Shown: positions 2,753-38,031, counted from the first letter of the stretch. The stretch: 64,000 bases of DNA from Bdellovibrionales bacterium (GCA_965199825.1 OZ241329.1:2176001-2240000), one strand, 5' to 3'. The notes: generated from the sequence alone by a model not told the origin. Made by a program: numbers and translations.

Positions 2753-4488
2753 AGACGCAGTGGAGCGGGGATTCCCAGCAGGCTCAAGCCTCGCCGTAAA
2801 GTCATTTGAGTTGTCTTAACAAGTGCTAGGCGAGACTGCATCAGTTCAGGCGAAGCCGCAGTCTTGATGGGGCACTCTTTATAAAAACGATTAAACAATT
2901 TGGCCAAATCAAAAAGATAAGCACAAAAGATCGAAGGCTTATATTCGGTGGCGGCTTGCAAGAGCGCATTTTTAAATTTTTCGATATGCAAAATTAAAAG
3001 TTGCTCTGGAAGAGATTCCAAATGCGGGATCTGATCATCAATAGGCTCACCCACTTTTTTTAAAATACTCGAACACCGCGCATGAACATATTGAAGGTAG
3101 GGGCCGGTTTCGCCATCAAGCTTTAACCAATCTTCGAGCACAAACTGAATGCTCCGATTCGGATCAATCTTCAACATTCCATATTTAATTGCGCCTAAAA
3201 CAATTTGCTCGCTGAGCTCTTCAATCTGGGTGTCTGACCATTCCGATTTGAGCGGAGTGAGATACTGTTCAATCACTTGGTGGCTCACTTTATTATTGAA
3301 ATCTTTAAGCGACATCGCATTCATGGTGCGCGAACTAAAAGGAGCCCCTTTTGTATCGGTGACCAATTCATAACCTAAAAACAAAGATTTTTTGGCCTGT
3401 GGAAATCCCATCAATTCTGCGGTTTTAAAAAGCTGTTGAAAGTGGAGGCGTTGGCGCGAATCGACAACATAAATAGATTTTGTAATTGTTGGATCCGAAA
3501 ATTTTTGCTTTATCAGTTCTAAATCTTTGGTTAAATAAAGTCCTGAGCCATCGCTTTTAAGATAAATCGCAAATCCAAGGTCGTACTCATTGAGATCAAT
3601 GCCGATGGCGCCTTCACTTAAAACAAAAAAGCCTTCCTCAAATTTTTTCTTTACCAATTCTTTTGAGGGCTGATCGCATTCGCTTTCATAAAACCATTTA
3701 TCAAATCGGACATTGAGCCATTCGTAAACACTTTTCATTTCGTCAAGCGACCACTCTCGGGTTTTTAGGTAAAGCTCATAGGTCTCACCCGATTTCTTTT
3801 CGAGTTGCAAAGCCACCTGATAAATTTCTTGTTTGACCGATTCTGGCGGGTCATTTTTAAGATAGGCATCCGCCGCCGAATACATCTCGCCGAGCCAATG
3901 GGCATCTGGCGACTGGGGAATTTCTGTTTTTTTAAATTTTTGAATAAACCAAATCGCTTTGGCAATGTGAGCCCCCATATCGCCAGGATAGGTGGCCCTT
4001 ACGATGTGATGTCCGATTGCCTCTAATAAATTACACACCACATCGCCATAAATGGTGTTTCTTAAGTGACCTAAATGAAGTGCTTTATGGGTATTGGGTT
4101 GTGAGAATTCGACAATGATTTTTTCTTGCTCTGATTTTTCTAACATCGGTGAGCGAAGGTATTTTTCACCCGAACACTGCTCGAAAGATTCCTTTAAACA
4201 CAAATCAAGATCAAAAATAAAATTCAAATAACCATTTAGCTCTTGAACGACTTTAATACGCTTTAAAGGATATTTTTGGACGGCTTGACACAGAGTTTGT
4301 GCGATCAATTTTGGCGACTGCTTTAAGCTTTTTGCCAGCGAATGACAGGGAAAGGCCGCATGAGCCATCTCGGGCTGGGGTGAAAAGCTCACCAACTCTG
4401 TAATCGATTGATTTAAACCGTAGGTTTCGTTTACCGCTTTTTGACAAAGCTCTTTGGCCTCGTCGAGATACAAACTCAAATGTGTCAT
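2749..4488 (-). CDS. argS: Arginine--tRNA ligase
   Basis: VEFSQPNTHKALHLGHLRN (HIGH motif), YVVDSRQ, GETGPYLQYVHAR, FNRFY anticodon-binding domain. Confidence 0.96.
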   Translation of the reverse strand: MTHLSLYLDEAKELCQKAVNETYGLNQSITELVSFSPQPEMAHAAFPCHSLAKSLKQSPKLIAQTLCQAVQKYPLKRIKVVQELNGYLNFIFDLDLCLKESFEQCSGEKYLRSPMLEKSEQEKIIVEFSQPNTHKALHLGHLRNTIYGDVVCNLLEAIGHHIVRATYPGDMGAHIAKAIWFIQKFKKTEIPQSPDAHWLGEMYSAADAYLKNDPPESVKQEIYQVALQLEKKSGETYELYLKTREWSLDEMKSVYEWLNVRFDKWFYESECDQPSKELVKKKFEEGFFVLSEGAIGIDLNEYDLGFAIYLKSDGSGLYLTKDLELIKQKFSDPTITKSIYVVDSRQRLHFQQLFKTAELMGFPQAKKSLFLGYELVTDTKGAPFSSRTMNAMSLKDFNNKVSHQVIEQYLTPLKSEWSDTQIEELSEQIVLGAIKYGMLKIDPNRSIQFVLEDWLKLDGETGPYLQYVHARCSSILKKVGEPIDDQIPHLESLPEQLLILHIEKFKNALLQAATEYKPSIFCAYLFDLAKLFNRFYKECPIKTAASPELMQSRLALVKTTQMTLRRGLSLLGIPAPLRL

Positions 4489-33234: not shown

Positions 33235-33311
33235 GGGGTGGTAGTTAAGTTGGTTATAACGTCCGCCTGTCACGCGGAAGGCCGCGGGTTCGAGTCCCGT
33301 CCACCCCGCCA
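33235..33311 (+). tRNA. tRNA-Asp (GTC)
   Basis: Acceptor GGGGTGG/CCACCCC, G discriminator, encoded CCA; anticodon arm TCCGC-CTGTCAC-GCGGA; T-loop GTTCGAG. Confidence 0.97.
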
Positions 33312-33374
33312 ATAATAAAAAGAAAAAGATAAAACCCAAAAGACAAACAAAATTCTGTTCGAAGTTCAAACGCC

Positions 33375-33826
33375 TTCATGCGGGGTGGACGGGACGAGAA
33401 GGTTGAACGCGAACCCGTGGGCGATTCGACCAAAGGGAGAATTGAGTGCGGGGCGGCGGCGCCGGATGCGCCGACGAGCGTTCAAGCCGACTGCATGGCA
33501 GGACGCAGGGCTGAAGGTGGGAACACGAGGATCAAGCGAGTTTCGAGCAAAGCGAGAAGCAAGCGCAATTCATCCCTAAAATACAAATTTCAGACAGGCA
33601 CACCTTCTGAAAATTAGCTTTGTAGTAGCAAACAAGATTTGTTTTAAGTAATCTAAAGTTATTTAGTGGATAAAATAAATTAGGTTTTGATTATCGATAA
33701 ATCAATTCCTTTGAGTTTTATAAATATTGTTCTGATCAAAAGCTAGATGAAGAAATTTGAAAAATTGAATTTTTATTTCAGGATCCATCGCAAGTGAAGG
33801 CGATCGACTTATGGTGACCATGCGTG
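33375..33826 (+). repeat. ~450-bp non-coding direct repeat, copy 1, beginning with the antisense of the tRNA-Asp 3' end
   Basis: Aligns by eye with 37582-38031 from TTCATGCGGGGTGGAC to ACCATGCGTG; GC-rich first ~200 nt nearly identical, AT-rich rest diverged. Confidence 0.92.
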
Positions 33827-33923
33827 AGGACCAGTGGGACTCGTCCTCCAATGTTTTACGTAAACTAATGTTATTTGTTTCTGCAGGTGAGGCTTTAAAA
33901 CTGAATCTGGCAACTGGGGTTGA

Positions 33924-36131
33924 TCACTGACATGTCCCATCGTTCATCATGCCCGTGATAATTCCAGTGACCACGGAGACATTGGACTGATCGGCATTCC
34001 CGTTGGCAGCCAAAAAAGAAGCGCCACTTGCAAACGAGCAATAGTGTCCTTGACCGTTGGAGTTGTAAACAGCCGGTTGATCTGCAATCCTAAAAAATCC
34101 AGCGGGCATGGGAGGGCCACTGCAGGCACCGTCGTTTTGCATCCCATAAGTGATCCCCGTTACCGTTCTGACATTTGAAAGATCACCGTTTCCGTTATCG
34201 GCGATAAAGGTGGCGCTATTGGAAAAGGAACAAAAATGTCCGCTACCGTTCGAGTTATAAATGGTTCCACTTCCTGAAATAATAAAAAATCCACCTGCCA
34301 TAGGGGCAACAACACAAGGCCCAGTCTGTTGCATCATGCTTGTCGCTGAAGCGGCTATGGTTGTGGCGTTGGATTCATCTAAATTTCCGCCGTCAGCCAC
34401 GAATGACGCAATATCCGTATAACCACACCACTGGCCGCTTCCGTTGGAGCGAAAAACAGCAGGCGTGCCATCAATTCTAAAAAATCCTGCGGGCAAAACG
34501 GTCGGACTCAAAGGTGTTGAGCCACCGTTGAGCACTGGGTTTTGTGCAACTGTTCCGGGAACTCTCACTGTCCCCATTGAAATTCCTTGGGGTTCTAAAC
34601 CGATTGCTGAAATTCCGTAAATATAAATCGGCTGCCCCGCGAATTGGGCAAGCGAACTGGGGAGCGGAATCTCAAAACGATAATTTGAACCGCCTCCTTG
34701 ACAAGCTTGATTGACGGCAGCCTCACTTGGTAAATTAGCTGGATATTGCCCAATATAAATTCCACTTCCTGCGGGGCCTTTGACGTACACATTCACTTGA
34801 GCTGAAGTTGCAACTAATGAGGAGCAGGTCCAACCCATAATTTTTGTTTGATCCGCAGAAATTCCGTCAACCATACCAATGGTGGTGTGATCGGCAGGTA
34901 AACCCATCGAGTGTTGTCTTCGATAGTTGAGTAAAGCAGATTTCACCGGACTGTATGTAGTAAATCCCCATTGTTTAGTTGGCTCTATATCCGCGGAGTG
35001 TTGCTGATCGGGGCCTTCGTCTTCATCGTTCGGGCCACGGGGACCTTGAAATTCGTTAAATTGGTGCACAAACAAAAAGATGGGATCTAAACTATTTGCC
35101 ACACTCATAAATTGATTAAAAGTATTTCCGCCATCTGTGAGTGCGGCATCTGGACTGTTCCAGCCGTTTGATCCTGTCACAGCACCTGATGCAGTGAAGG
35201 CTTCAGTTCGGCTTCCTATTTGGGCATAGCTTGGAAATAAATTGTTTGCAGGACTTAGGTGATCAACCCAAGTCCACAGTTGCCACACGGGGTTGACCAT
35301 ATGAGGTGAGTTTGTGGGTGCGGGGTTTGCCCAAAGATTGGGTTGAGAGTCCATATAACCCGCCATAAATCGAAAGGTAAATTTTGAATCCCATCCTTTA
35401 TCTTGAATCGCTTTTTTGAGGAGGGCAAGTGGTGAAGCAGGTGAGGTGTCTTGGCCCGCACCCATAAATACGACGAGTAAGGGCTTACCTTGGTAAATAA
35501 TATTAATATTAGGGTATTTCGAAATTAAATTCGCAAAAAAGCTGACTTGACGGTCAAACGGGCTATTGCCATCTGCACCAATTTGATATTCATTGACCTC
35601 TGCCCCACCAAGAAGTGGAACAATTTTTAGTCTCGTCTTTGAGTTATTGTAGAGCGAGTAAATTGTCGAAACATTATTCGCGATATTGACCACTTGATCT
35701 TTGCCGGCCTGACTACCGCAATTGGAGAGATCACTGCCGAAGGCGCAAGACACACCGTTTGAAGTGTCCAAGGTTACAGCATCAACACCCATCTCTTCGA
35801 GCCAATAAATATGTTGACGAATGATTGCGGGATCGGTGCTGTCGTAACCCGTATTTTGTCCATTTGAGTTTGTCATTGAGGAAGAAGAAAGAAGTGGATT
35901 GTAAAGCGAAGACACATGCTGAGCACCTGGTCCAAACCAACCTTCATATTCCATCACGATCAGTCGCGAATTTTCATTTACATTGAGACTTTGAGAGGCG
36001 GTCGAGAGAGATAAAAATGAACCCGATGCACTACCCGAAATTGCTCGAAGTCCGCTCGTACATCCATTTGTCCATGAAAGCGTAATCAATCCAATGAGAA
36101 GGAACGCTAATGTGCCGAGTCGCAGTTTCAT
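33924..36131 (-). CDS. Secreted/lipoprotein glycoside hydrolase (GH99/GH71-like) with Ig-like domain and three C-terminal repeats
   Basis: WTNGC lipobox-like signal; YEGWFG, IIRQHIYWLEEMGVD, QFNEF, IEP motifs; GMVDG..GW domain; 3x GFF.I....[VI][YF].SNG.G..C. Confidence 0.7.
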   Translation of the reverse strand: MKLRLGTLAFLLIGLITLSWTNGCTSGLRAISGSASGSFLSLSTASQSLNVNENSRLIVMEYEGWFGPGAQHVSSLYNPLLSSSSMTNSNGQNTGYDSTDPAIIRQHIYWLEEMGVDAVTLDTSNGVSCAFGSDLSNCGSQAGKDQVVNIANNVSTIYSLYNNSKTRLKIVPLLGGAEVNEYQIGADGNSPFDRQVSFFANLISKYPNINIIYQGKPLLVVFMGAGQDTSPASPLALLKKAIQDKGWDSKFTFRFMAGYMDSQPNLWANPAPTNSPHMVNPVWQLWTWVDHLSPANNLFPSYAQIGSRTEAFTASGAVTGSNGWNSPDAALTDGGNTFNQFMSVANSLDPIFLFVHQFNEFQGPRGPNDEDEGPDQQHSADIEPTKQWGFTTYSPVKSALLNYRRQHSMGLPADHTTIGMVDGISADQTKIMGWTCSSLVATSAQVNVYVKGPAGSGIYIGQYPANLPSEAAVNQACQGGGSNYRFEIPLPSSLAQFAGQPIYIYGISAIGLEPQGISMGTVRVPGTVAQNPVLNGGSTPLSPTVLPAGFFRIDGTPAVFRSNGSGQWCGYTDIASFVADGGNLDESNATTIAASATSMMQQTGPCVVAPMAGGFFIISGSGTIYNSNGSGHFCSFSNSATFIADNGNGDLSNVRTVTGITYGMQNDGACSGPPMPAGFFRIADQPAVYNSNGQGHYCSFASGASFLAANGNADQSNVSVVTGIITGMMNDGTCQ

Positions 36132-36316
36132 TTGATACCTCTAAAGACTGAATTGCAAAGCAAAGACCTTGCTGTCTCTTACACAGAGCCTTTCGGCGCT
36201 TACCGATTTGACATTGAGAATATTAGTTGAAACTTCAGTCACAAATTGAAGCATATCAAAATGAAACATATTTTTAAGACAAAATAAATTTTATTTATTA
36301 AGCCGCTTTGAGGGAA

Positions 36317-37279
36317 TCACAATTTCAGTTTAACAAGCTTTTCACTCAGTCGATCGTTCATTTCCTTAAAGGGAATTTTGTGGGCACTCGGGTCTAAGTT
36401 ACGATCGCTGATTTCTGTAACGATGACTTTGTAAATCATTGAAAGCGTAAGTTCGCGGCTTGGGCCCATAAGTTCAGACTGAAAGATTCGCCAAACTTCT
36501 GTGCGAGCAGGATCTAGAGTTTCATGTGCATAACTGTTTTCCCAACCCGATGAGTCGTTGGAACGCGTGAAATCACGGCCAGCATATTGTGGATCATTAC
36601 GACCCTCACTCAGCGCATCGCGAATGGCTTGAGGATTTTGAAGTTCTGAAATGACATACAAATCGGCTGCAAACTCCTCGTAAGGTTTGAGATCGAATTG
36701 ATTTGGGACCTCGTTTAAACCCTTTAACGATGCGGCTGCTTGTTTGCGCATCACAGTTAAATCGGGATGGTTGATTGCTTCTTCTTCCCATTTTGATCGT
36801 TGTTCATCATCTGCAGAGTCGTAATGTCCGTGAGAAATTTCTAGCGTTTTGTCAATCACCGAAGTCAAGAACGGCAGGTAATAAAGTTGGAAGTTGCGAC
36901 GATAAGGAAACGGATTTTGGGGGACTTCCAGTTCACTGGCATAAAGATCAAATATCAAGTGGCCCAACTCGTGTAAGGTGAATGTTTGAAGTGTCGCGAG
37001 TGATAGATTTTGTTCCTGATCACGCGGTTTTAAAAATGGCAATGCGTGAATCGTTATTCCTTGAAACGACAAAGCTCCGGTCTCGATGATCATTTTTGGT
37101 GGCAGGTGAAAGTGCTTCAGTTGAGTGAGCGAACGAATGATATTGAGGCCCACTGCAGGGTCGTCTCGAAGTTGCAAATCAGAAAATTCGATTTCGGTCT
37201 GGGACAATATGACCGTACAGCGCTCTTCACCGTAAGCAAAAAGCAGGGGAACAAATAATGCGAATGCGAACTGATACAT
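36317..37279 (-). CDS. Secreted gluzincin-type zinc metallopeptidase-like protein
   Basis: Signal peptide, HELGH (HExxH) and downstream EEFAAD third-ligand motif. Confidence 0.65.
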   Translation of the reverse strand: MYQFAFALFVPLLFAYGEERCTVILSQTEIEFSDLQLRDDPAVGLNIIRSLTQLKHFHLPPKMIIETGALSFQGITIHALPFLKPRDQEQNLSLATLQTFTLHELGHLIFDLYASELEVPQNPFPYRRNFQLYYLPFLTSVIDKTLEISHGHYDSADDEQRSKWEEEAINHPDLTVMRKQAAASLKGLNEVPNQFDLKPYEEFAADLYVISELQNPQAIRDALSEGRNDPQYAGRDFTRSNDSSGWENSYAHETLDPARTEVWRIFQSELMGPSRELTLSMIYKVIVTEISDRNLDPSAHKIPFKEMNDRLSEKLVKLKL

Positions 37280-37581
37280 TGAAATCCTTAGGCAGCAAAC
37301 TTCGCTTTGTTTGAGAATTTTAAAAATAACGTCGCGAACTGTACGGCGATGAATTTCAAAAAACTAGCCACTTCTGTTGGTGGAATCAAAGGGAAAGAGA
37401 AATTATCTTTTACTTTATAGAAGACCTATTTCGATTAAGAGCACTGTAGATCCAATATTGCATTTAGAAAGTTGTTGGTGCTAAGAAGTTGAAATTTAAA
37501 TTAGGGTTTCTCCTGCCTATAAACAAAATAAAAAAATAAAGTGAAGCAGACCTATCGATTTTTGCTAAATGCACTGCCTTG

Positions 37582-38031
37582 TTCATGCGGGGTGGACGGG
37601 ACGAGAAGGTTGAACGCGAACCCGTGGGCGATTCGACCACAGGGAGAATTGAGTGCGGGGCGGCGGCGCGGATGCGTCGACGAGCGTTCAAGCCGACTGC
37701 ATGGCAGGACGCAGGGCTGAAGGTGGGAACACGAGGACCAAGCGAGTTTCGAGCAAAGCGAGAAGTAAGCGGATTTCATCACTGAAATACCAATTTTAGA
37801 CAGGCATACCTTCTAAAAGTTATTTTTGTAATAGAGAACTACATTTAATTTAAATAATCTAAATTTATTTACGTTGAAAAATAAGTTCTGTTTCGAGGAT
37901 CGATAAATCAATTCTTTTGCGACTTATAAATATTGTCTTGATCAAATCCTAAATGAGGAACTTATAAATTTAAATTCTTATTTCAGGATCCATCGCAAGT
38001 GAAGCTGATCGACCTGTTGTCACCATGCGTG
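37582..38031 (+). repeat. ~450-bp non-coding direct repeat, copy 2
   Basis: Second copy of 33375-33826, including GCGGGGTGGACGGGAC and an identical 27-nt block TTATTTCAGGATCCATCGCAAGTGAAG. Confidence 0.92.

Follow-up and report, generated by a model that had tools for sequence, protein, structure and literature searches.

What is the short sequence that lies twice behind the tRNA-Asp gene of this genome, each time facing the gene with an antisense copy of its 3' end, and how did it come to bracket two further genes? The window, the whole 64,000-nucleotide stretch of DNA analysed here (G000:C1:2176001-2240000), lies within the 2.84-Mb genome G000 of a Bdellovibrionales bacterium. tRNA-Asp(GTC) is the sole tRNA gene of this 64-kb window and the sole tRNA-Asp gene of the genome. 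The locus comprises the following parts:

33235..33311, + strand, tRNA-Asp(GTC), called by ARAGORN; the target of the element
33312..33374, + strand, A-rich spacer of unit 1
33380..33400, + strand, antisense arm of copy 1, 16 nt exact and 19/21 to T54
33400..33540, + strand, folded core of copy 1, a predicted three-way junction (33400-33492) and then another hairpin
33541..33826, + strand, post-core block and AT-rich tail of copy 1, 77-88% identity with copy 2
33924..36131, - strand, cargo gene 1, 735 aa
36317..37279, - strand, cargo gene 2, 320 aa
37492..37586, + strand, decayed tRNA 3'-end remnant (end 37518) and spacer of unit 2
37587..37607, + strand, antisense arm of copy 2, identical to the copy 1 arm
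37607..37746, + strand, folded core of copy 2, 162/166 identity with copy 1 (over 33375-33540)
37747..38031, + strand, post-core block and tail of copy 2

Copy 1 lies 68 nt 3' of tRNA-Asp on the same strand. The initial annotation had noted an exact antisense of the tRNA 3' end, and this was confirmed at both sites: 33380-33395 and 37587-37602 carry one and the same 16-mer, the perfect reverse complement of tRNA-Asp 33294-33309. Pairing extended to T54 covers 19 of 21 nt, with a 2-nt mismatch in the copy 1 arm facing tRNA positions 57-58. When up to two mismatches were allowed, the 16-mer occurred on the + strand of C1 at just the two arm sites, and on the - strand at tRNA-Asp itself and one unrelated site. 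The copies are direct repeats 4,207 bp apart (33375-33826 and 37582-38031), with 396 of 453 alignment columns identical. A duplicated element of about 450 bp had been proposed; the direct repeats are there, but the element proper is a core of about 165 bp. Identity between the copies is graded, from the core (162/166) through the post-core block (53/60) and the AT-rich tail (132/171) to the last block (49/56). Because the core is 98% identical and its flanks 53-88%, the core would be under strong constraint or would have been converted recently. The shared tail of about 260 bp had no third copy in the genome, and its open frames, on both strands, were short and had no clear coding signal.

The 95 nt 5' of copy 2 aligned without gaps to the end of tRNA-Asp and its spacer (50/95 identical), a score reached in none of 1000 shuffles and none of 1000 genomic windows of matched GC. 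This remnant and spacer equal the tRNA-Asp end and unit 1 spacer in length and register, and the repeat unit was therefore defined as 33312-37518. A direct tRNA copy was absent 3' of the copy 1 core, and no direct 18-mer of the tRNA-Asp 3' end with up to three mismatches was found within 100 kb of the Asp copies. Promoter and terminator scans gave results at or below chance, and no terminator-like site was found by the scan between tRNA-Asp and copy 1.

Related elements were found behind six tRNA or tmRNA genes of the source genome (Asp, Met, Gln, Leu(CAG), Pro(CGG) and tmRNA). In BLAST searches, core-related sequence followed tRNA-Met (C1 739.8 kb) and tRNA-Gln; the Gln copy was missed by both covariance models described below, and its call rests on BLAST with an E of about 1e-4. 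Reading of the DNA behind all 39 tRNA/tmRNA genes revealed further arms, each fitting the gene in front of it, at Leu(CAG), Pro(CGG) and tmRNA. Leu(CAG) has two tandem copies, in which the direct tRNA 3' copy is exact both times, and the Pro(CGG) copy ends with a direct tRNA 3' copy bearing two mismatches. At Asp, Met, Gln and tmRNA, none was found within 100 kb. The tRNA fragment had been described as inverted in place of the direct copy left by islands; this holds for the Asp copies, which have no direct copy, but intact relatives carry both. The intact layout runs from the tRNA through a spacer, the antisense arm and a covarying core to a direct copy of the tRNA 3' end.

Hairpin repeats of other kinds were also noted on C1. 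A second hairpin family has six copies, 82-91% identical and free of tRNA-matched arms, directly behind tRNA-Glu (168180), tRNA-Met (2154936) and tRNA-Arg (1818907) and at 169.8, 177.9 and 797.5 kb. Tandem palindromic repeats of about 115 bp lie behind tRNA-Arg(TCG) (C1:1967632-1967969 and 2550.4-2550.8 kb), and a related repeat lies behind tRNA-Arg(CCT).

BLASTN with the core gave no match in 60 relatives or in phages, and only two 35-nt chance matches in plasmids. Because the relatives yielded nothing to BLASTN, covariance models were needed. Model R1, built from seven sequences, had matches in 19 of the 108 other genomes of the taxonomic family. A same-strand tRNA stood upstream of 51 of its 66 matches outside G000; 44 of these 51 were accompanied by 10 nt or more of exact antisense and 32 by 12 nt or more of direct copy, counts that retain three G115 matches which overlap tandem tRNA-Ser-like copies and look spurious. 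Model R2 had matches in 27 of 151 genomes of the order and 14 of 151 of the phylum, G000 included. Among the 44 of 50 new R2 order matches examined, 39 lay behind a tRNA or tmRNA, 30 had an arm and 22 a direct copy. The combined R1 and R2 sets cover 25 tRNA/tmRNA target types, related genomes not being independent in these family counts. An upstream tRNA/tmRNA was present in the fetched DNA for 90 of 110 examined matches, and 54 of the 90 relatives' matches had 12 nt or more of the tRNA 3' end as a direct copy. The small genomes G002, G017, G115 and G120 (1.5-2 Mb) were rich in matches, with 8-16, some of them weak. A weak R2 match in L145 (E 0.009), in which the element's arms are missing, was treated as chance. 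A strict sequence pattern had zero matches in genome contigs; a looser one gave real loci in 1 of 7 cases from genome contigs, 2 of 5 from metagenomes and 0 from viral contigs. The pattern match L015 shares its element, flanks and ORFs with G092:C5, a genome of the window's taxonomic family.

Some loci exist with and without the element. At the same tRNA-Gln site within genus g62, seven genomes have cores, made of different hairpins and with direct arms ranging from intact to truncated, and two have no core. A synteny search with aldehyde dehydrogenase found tRNA-Asp at 2 of 19 loci. In G005 a plain terminator and no element follow the syntenic tRNA-Asp, and in G001 (L212:3361-3450) the terminator is followed by a 14-nt exact antisense arm and no recognised core. 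Two unusual arrangements were observed elsewhere. In L183 (2843-3090, - strand), L066 and L068, the core is followed by an intact tRNA and preceded by a decayed copy of the same tRNA, a mirror or whole-gene form of the element. In L141, the 3' end of the tmRNA, the terminator and the antisense arm together make up a single perfect hairpin of 36 bp that looks like the product of fold-back copying.

The antisense arms matched their own tRNAs closely. The mean matching run was 6.0 nt, compared with 3.2 nt over 7,538 cross-isotype pairs (n=90), and this level was reached by 0 of 2,000 permutations; the test counted just the bases 3' of the conserved T-loop and retained the three G115 matches. In L015 and L018, the arm even tracks single-base differences between tRNA alleles. 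The proposal of a non-autonomous tRNA-targeting element was thus borne out in that copies at other tRNAs carry the antisense of their own tRNA. The objection that only two copies might exist fails with six genes occupied in this genome and 25 target types overall. We conclude that the repeat family is real and structured and that its arms match their targets.

Both junctions have set positions with an offset of 2 nt: the antisense ends at T54, and the direct copy begins at C56, as seen in 45 of 52. The bases before the direct copies are mostly GG or AC, compared with TT in the tRNA, and the direct arm has no T54-T55 in 49 of 52. With the register set from positions 58-66 only, the antisense arm pairs at 54-56 in 70 of 74 copies and at 53 in 5 of 74. 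Among 77 proximal copies, pairing declines outward from 91% in the T-stem to 49% in the acceptor stem and about 37% beyond, in a register chosen on those same positions. Two bases of the arm can pair with an intact tRNA gene but have no partner in the right arm of the element. A guide role would fit this without being proved by it, because T54-T55 are invariant in tRNAs; for the same reason, the AA facing T54-T55 may belong to the core as a motif instead of acting as a guide. In 17 of 42 cases, some of them tandem arrays, the duplicated stretch extends past the CCA into the trailer, where 12 or more of 20 nt are identical. The arm contains the complement of the CCA end in 4 of 90, tRNAs with no encoded CCA being scored as no.

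The predicted core fold was supported by covariation. Changes on both sides occurred in 30 of 31 pairs in an alignment fitted to the model, and in 18 of 28 pairs in a plain alignment of seven sequences. The bases of the core were 89% paired, compared with 66% in shuffled and 33-42% in slid controls, and covariation was 0.62, compared with 0.21 and 0.07-0.12, respectively. The tRNA-sense strand folded better in 62 of 63 cases with RNA parameters and 61 of 63 with DNA parameters, an asymmetry that fits RNA and single-stranded DNA equally.

Between the two Asp copies lie two genes whose products are likely secreted. The N-terminal half of cargo gene 1 resembles GH99/WbsX glycoside hydrolases in feature comparison (0.90-0.95), which we regard as a lead only, and the gene had zero Pfam, NCBIfam and PDB matches. 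Its hydrolase half is present in 1 of 108 other genomes of the taxonomic family, and a paralogue of that half lies between two other tRNAs of the same genome. The C-terminus (window 34054-34495) has three cysteine-containing repeats of about 65 aa, and a piece 63% identical to them lies behind tRNA-Arg(TCG) at C1:1970328. Cargo gene 2 has an HEXXH motif and zero Pfam or NCBIfam matches; relationship to M4/M36 metalloproteases (scores 0.83-0.84) is a weak lead, and a single near-length search returned no homologue but the protein itself.

The bracketing of cargo seen in the initial annotation is not confined to Asp, as the element-cargo-element layout recurs at three other loci. The tmRNA locus of the source genome consists of an element, a 115-aa ORF, an element, a BrnT/BrnA-like pair (called by similarity to a Pfam-named BrnT) and a partial element. 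An array at tRNA-Asn of G096 holds a trypsin-like gene. In both, the second unit begins at a remnant of the tmRNA or tRNA end, as at Asp. The array at the G047 tmRNA spans 6.2 kb, and its cargo follows a direct arm that is still partly intact. Directly behind the Leu(CAG) element array lies a tandem of four small paralogous ORFs whose products are likely secreted (L007:4902-6454).

No mobilising enzyme was found for the element in the neighbourhoods and genomes searched. Neither ORF of unit 1 had a Pfam or NCBIfam match; the unit holds no integrase and the recombinases of the genome lie elsewhere, in keeping with the earlier remark that none was recognisable beside the element. Among 104 neighbouring ORFs scanned, of 219 selected, there were two tyrosine integrases, two partial Recombinase domains, one DDE fragment, one HNH and no reverse transcriptase (RT); the recombination-related ones apparently belong to separate islands, IS or prophage. 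A co-occurring HUH/RAYT, GIY-YIG or tyrosine recombinase had been suggested, and none proved to be linked. The source genome has 17 Y1 genes, zero of them beside an element; matches between their flanks and the element were at chance level (E 0.02 or worse), and the element-rich genomes G002 and G017 had no Y1_Tnp match. These Y1_Tnp/RAYT-like HUH genes (e.g. 507668, 1243572 and 2165154), most with a conserved 14-nt upstream motif in common, may make up a separate multi-copy HUH element. GIY-YIG candidates other than the ORFs of 236-272 aa and 93 aa had no link to the element, nor had tyrosine integrases, Recombinase domains or RT.

Other recombination genes were recorded along the way. The small genomes G002 and G017 (L183-L192) have many related tyrosine integrases, several ending beside a tRNA gene. 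Small ORFs with an HTH and a Recombinase domain occur at tRNA-linked islands (L081:2585-3256, L082:405-848 and 3168-3845, L077:2890-3675), with an apparent large serine recombinase C-terminus at the opposite end; these are possibly one gene split by integration. A 12-kb contig carries a 1291-aa open frame with a reverse transcriptase domain (G000:C2:1384-1863).

We tentatively favour, with a little less than even confidence, the reading that the element is a gene-less cassette of the kind of E. coli tRNA-linked repeats (TLRs), predicted to fold, which inserts at the T-loop as a folded single strand through an enzyme supplied from elsewhere. The insertion point would lie in the T-loop between T55 and C56. 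In the free element the antisense arm would pair with the direct arm; at insertion it would pair with the top strand of the tRNA gene, and one strand would be exchanged. Damage to the right-hand arm, as at Asp, would let the moving unit extend into flanking DNA. Serial insertions would stack spacer-core-cargo units behind the tRNA, and unit 1 (33312-37518) would be one such unit with two genes aboard. Carriage of the cargo by the core is our presumption here, separate cargo insertion or duplication being the alternatives. It is likely that repeated insertions pile extra genes behind tRNA genes and that the elements mark them. A bolder version, which we consider rather unlikely, would make TLR-type repeats widespread self-programming mobile DNA, with a folded core whose internal guide is rewritten for each tRNA, a host or visiting enzyme that cuts at T54-T55 with a 2-nt offset, and copies that, having lost the right arm, mobilise kilobases of nearby genes. 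If so, elements that have no integrase themselves would build integron-like cargo arrays behind tRNA genes.

Other explanations account for parts of these observations. The element might act as RNA, a processed tRNA-trailer RNA like RtT or RrA/B/F. It would then serve as a sponge for proteins or a decoy in processing, might dampen tRNA maturation, and would spread by duplication and gene conversion only. We think this unlikely, although the sense strand folds better (62/63), no terminator-like site separates tRNA-Asp from the element, and the 5S-linked TLRs of E. coli are transcribed, processed and bound by Hfq and CsrA, according to the extracts of PMC8144298. An equilibrium prediction also paired some 16 of the final 20 bases of tRNA-Asp with the trailer, from a program that ignores tRNA tertiary structure and folding order. 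The control of tRNA maturation suggested earlier is thus thermodynamically possible for copy 1, but the copy 2 arm is perfect though 4.2 kb away behind two convergent genes, which a role as RNA leaves unexplained. So are the base-exact junctions and the new matched arms at 25 target types, and the intact Leu copy is predicted to leave the tRNA's own pairing in place. Spread through an RNA intermediate, with an RT in trans copying element RNA at a nicked tRNA gene, appears improbable to us. An RVT_1 match was found in 4 of 5 element-rich genomes and in the source genome, and the duplication often runs past the CCA (17/42). However, G017, a 95% complete genome in one contig with eight copies, had no RVT_1 match, and no RT was among the scanned neighbours. 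The arm has its anchor in the T-loop, and the CCA-end complement is part of it in only 4 of 90, so it is not a primer-binding site.

The cassettes could also be passive left ends, attachment-site relics, of integrase-driven islands, the cassettes being moved in cis or trans by the tyrosine or large serine recombinase of a visiting island, as happens in accretion arrays. Integrase and serine-recombinase islands do occupy the same tRNA ends in these genomes, Phage_integrase matches number seven in G002 and nine in G017, and the 2-nt offset at TT resembles serine-recombinase cuts. Tyrosine and serine recombinases require the crossover bases in both partners, however, and the direct arm has no T54-T55 in 49 of 52. 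Islands were found on either side of the element, and the source genome had no match to the Recombinase domain and just two XerC/D-sized genes plus a 177-aa tyrosine recombinase of catalytic-domain size (C1:2381444-2381833). We therefore regard this origin as distinctly unlikely. A one-off local duplication or an assembly artefact is highly improbable. The 260-bp tail is confined to the two copies, so the proximal ~520 bp may be locally duplicated, and local duplication could account for the Asp pair, but not for the element itself, which occurs across the phylum. Suspicion that copy 2 is an artefact is dispelled by the contigs of run X1, possibly the source sample, in which each copy is present with its own flanks, zero differences and no joints; run X2, from the same study, contains copy 2 and the tail. 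No circle or deletion joints were found in the contig sets of runs X1-X3, contigs of a kind that drop rare variants.

The favoured reading, insertion of a folded strand at the T-loop, bears on how genes accumulate behind tRNAs. To what is known of TLRs the family adds testable rules: an arm matched to its target, junctions set at positions 54 and 56, alleles with and without the element within one genus, and arrays of cargo. Should the arm direct insertion, the element would amount to a small integration system that can be retargeted, and to a way of gaining genes that island finders based on integrases filter out. If it does not, the elements are still an unannotated structured family absent from Rfam.

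Precedents exist for several of the steps. Integron attC sites, CTX phage attP, IS200/IS605, REP/RAYT and IS91/ISCR combine strand-specific hairpins with an enzyme in trans and tandem arrays, and IS608 guide pairing and ISCR capture of flanking DNA are precedents for the inferred steps. Compared with HUH elements, the element had no cognate enzyme that we could find, and its target differs from copy to copy; the 17 Y1 genes have their own upstream motif, which does not match the element. TwoAYGGAY (RF01731) is likewise a multi-copy structured intergenic element with GGAY-type hairpin loops, and the extracts of its description report neither a tRNA link nor tRNA-matched arms (bioRxiv 10.64898/2026.09.22.753630). 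The window region and seven other element loci had no Rfam match, RF01731 included. Islander-type islands and arrays share the regenerated tRNA gene, displaced 3' fragment, tandem accretion and damaged fragments (PMC4383910, in extract). The elements here differ in having no integrase in the unit, an extra inverted arm and a covarying core. At the far end of unit 1, a decayed remnant of the tRNA 3' end (50/95 with spacer) in exact register may be a counterpart of the displaced fragment. According to the same extracts, Islander drops candidates that are below 2 kb, have no integrase or have inverted fragments (PMC4383910).

The closest likeness is to the TLRs of E. coli, and the element is therefore not as unlike known things as had been supposed. 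The extracts of PMC8144298 describe TLRs (the 178-bp tyrT/tyrV repeat = RtT/RttR, RF00391; RrA/B/F) as gene-less repeats of about 130-210 bp behind tRNA genes, often tandem, known since 1978 and without known function, binding of Hfq and CsrA by RrA/B/F being the only activity reported. They state that 22 E. coli TLRs end with an 18-19 bp copy of the 3' end of the upstream gene, and neither mobility nor an antisense arm appears in their TLR descriptions. Another study found raised mobilome coverage at tyrT/rttR, a signal that its authors attribute, for RNA genes, to RNA/DNA hybrids and not to circles (10.1101/2024.07.17.603846). Our literature search found no account of the family or of an antisense arm matched to its target; the arm may be described in Egan 1978, Rudd 1999 and Bosl 1991. 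RF00391 detected the E. coli tyr and lys repeats (controls 47-138; gathering threshold 45) and had no match in the window region (E up to 5) or at the seven other element loci (E up to 0.5). R1 had no significant match in E. coli TLRs (best E 0.39), and R2 had one weak match, to the rrfB repeat (18 bits, E 0.002 in 23.5 kb). Kinship with the E. coli TLRs would accordingly seem to be one of layout, with no significant sequence match. In the fetched K-12 loci, the tyr repeats have a spacer and an antisense arm closing a stem with the direct copy, like the elements here, and, as in the window copies, their arm is preceded by CATG and followed by GAGAAG. Pairing is looser in the arms of the lys and 5S repeats, and E. 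coli direct copies start at 57-58, compared with 56 here. The window copies have no direct copy and are not RtT members. That the elements as a whole belong with TLR-like elements is well supported; unlike the E. coli TLRs, the window copies have lost the direct arm and bracket kilobases of cargo.
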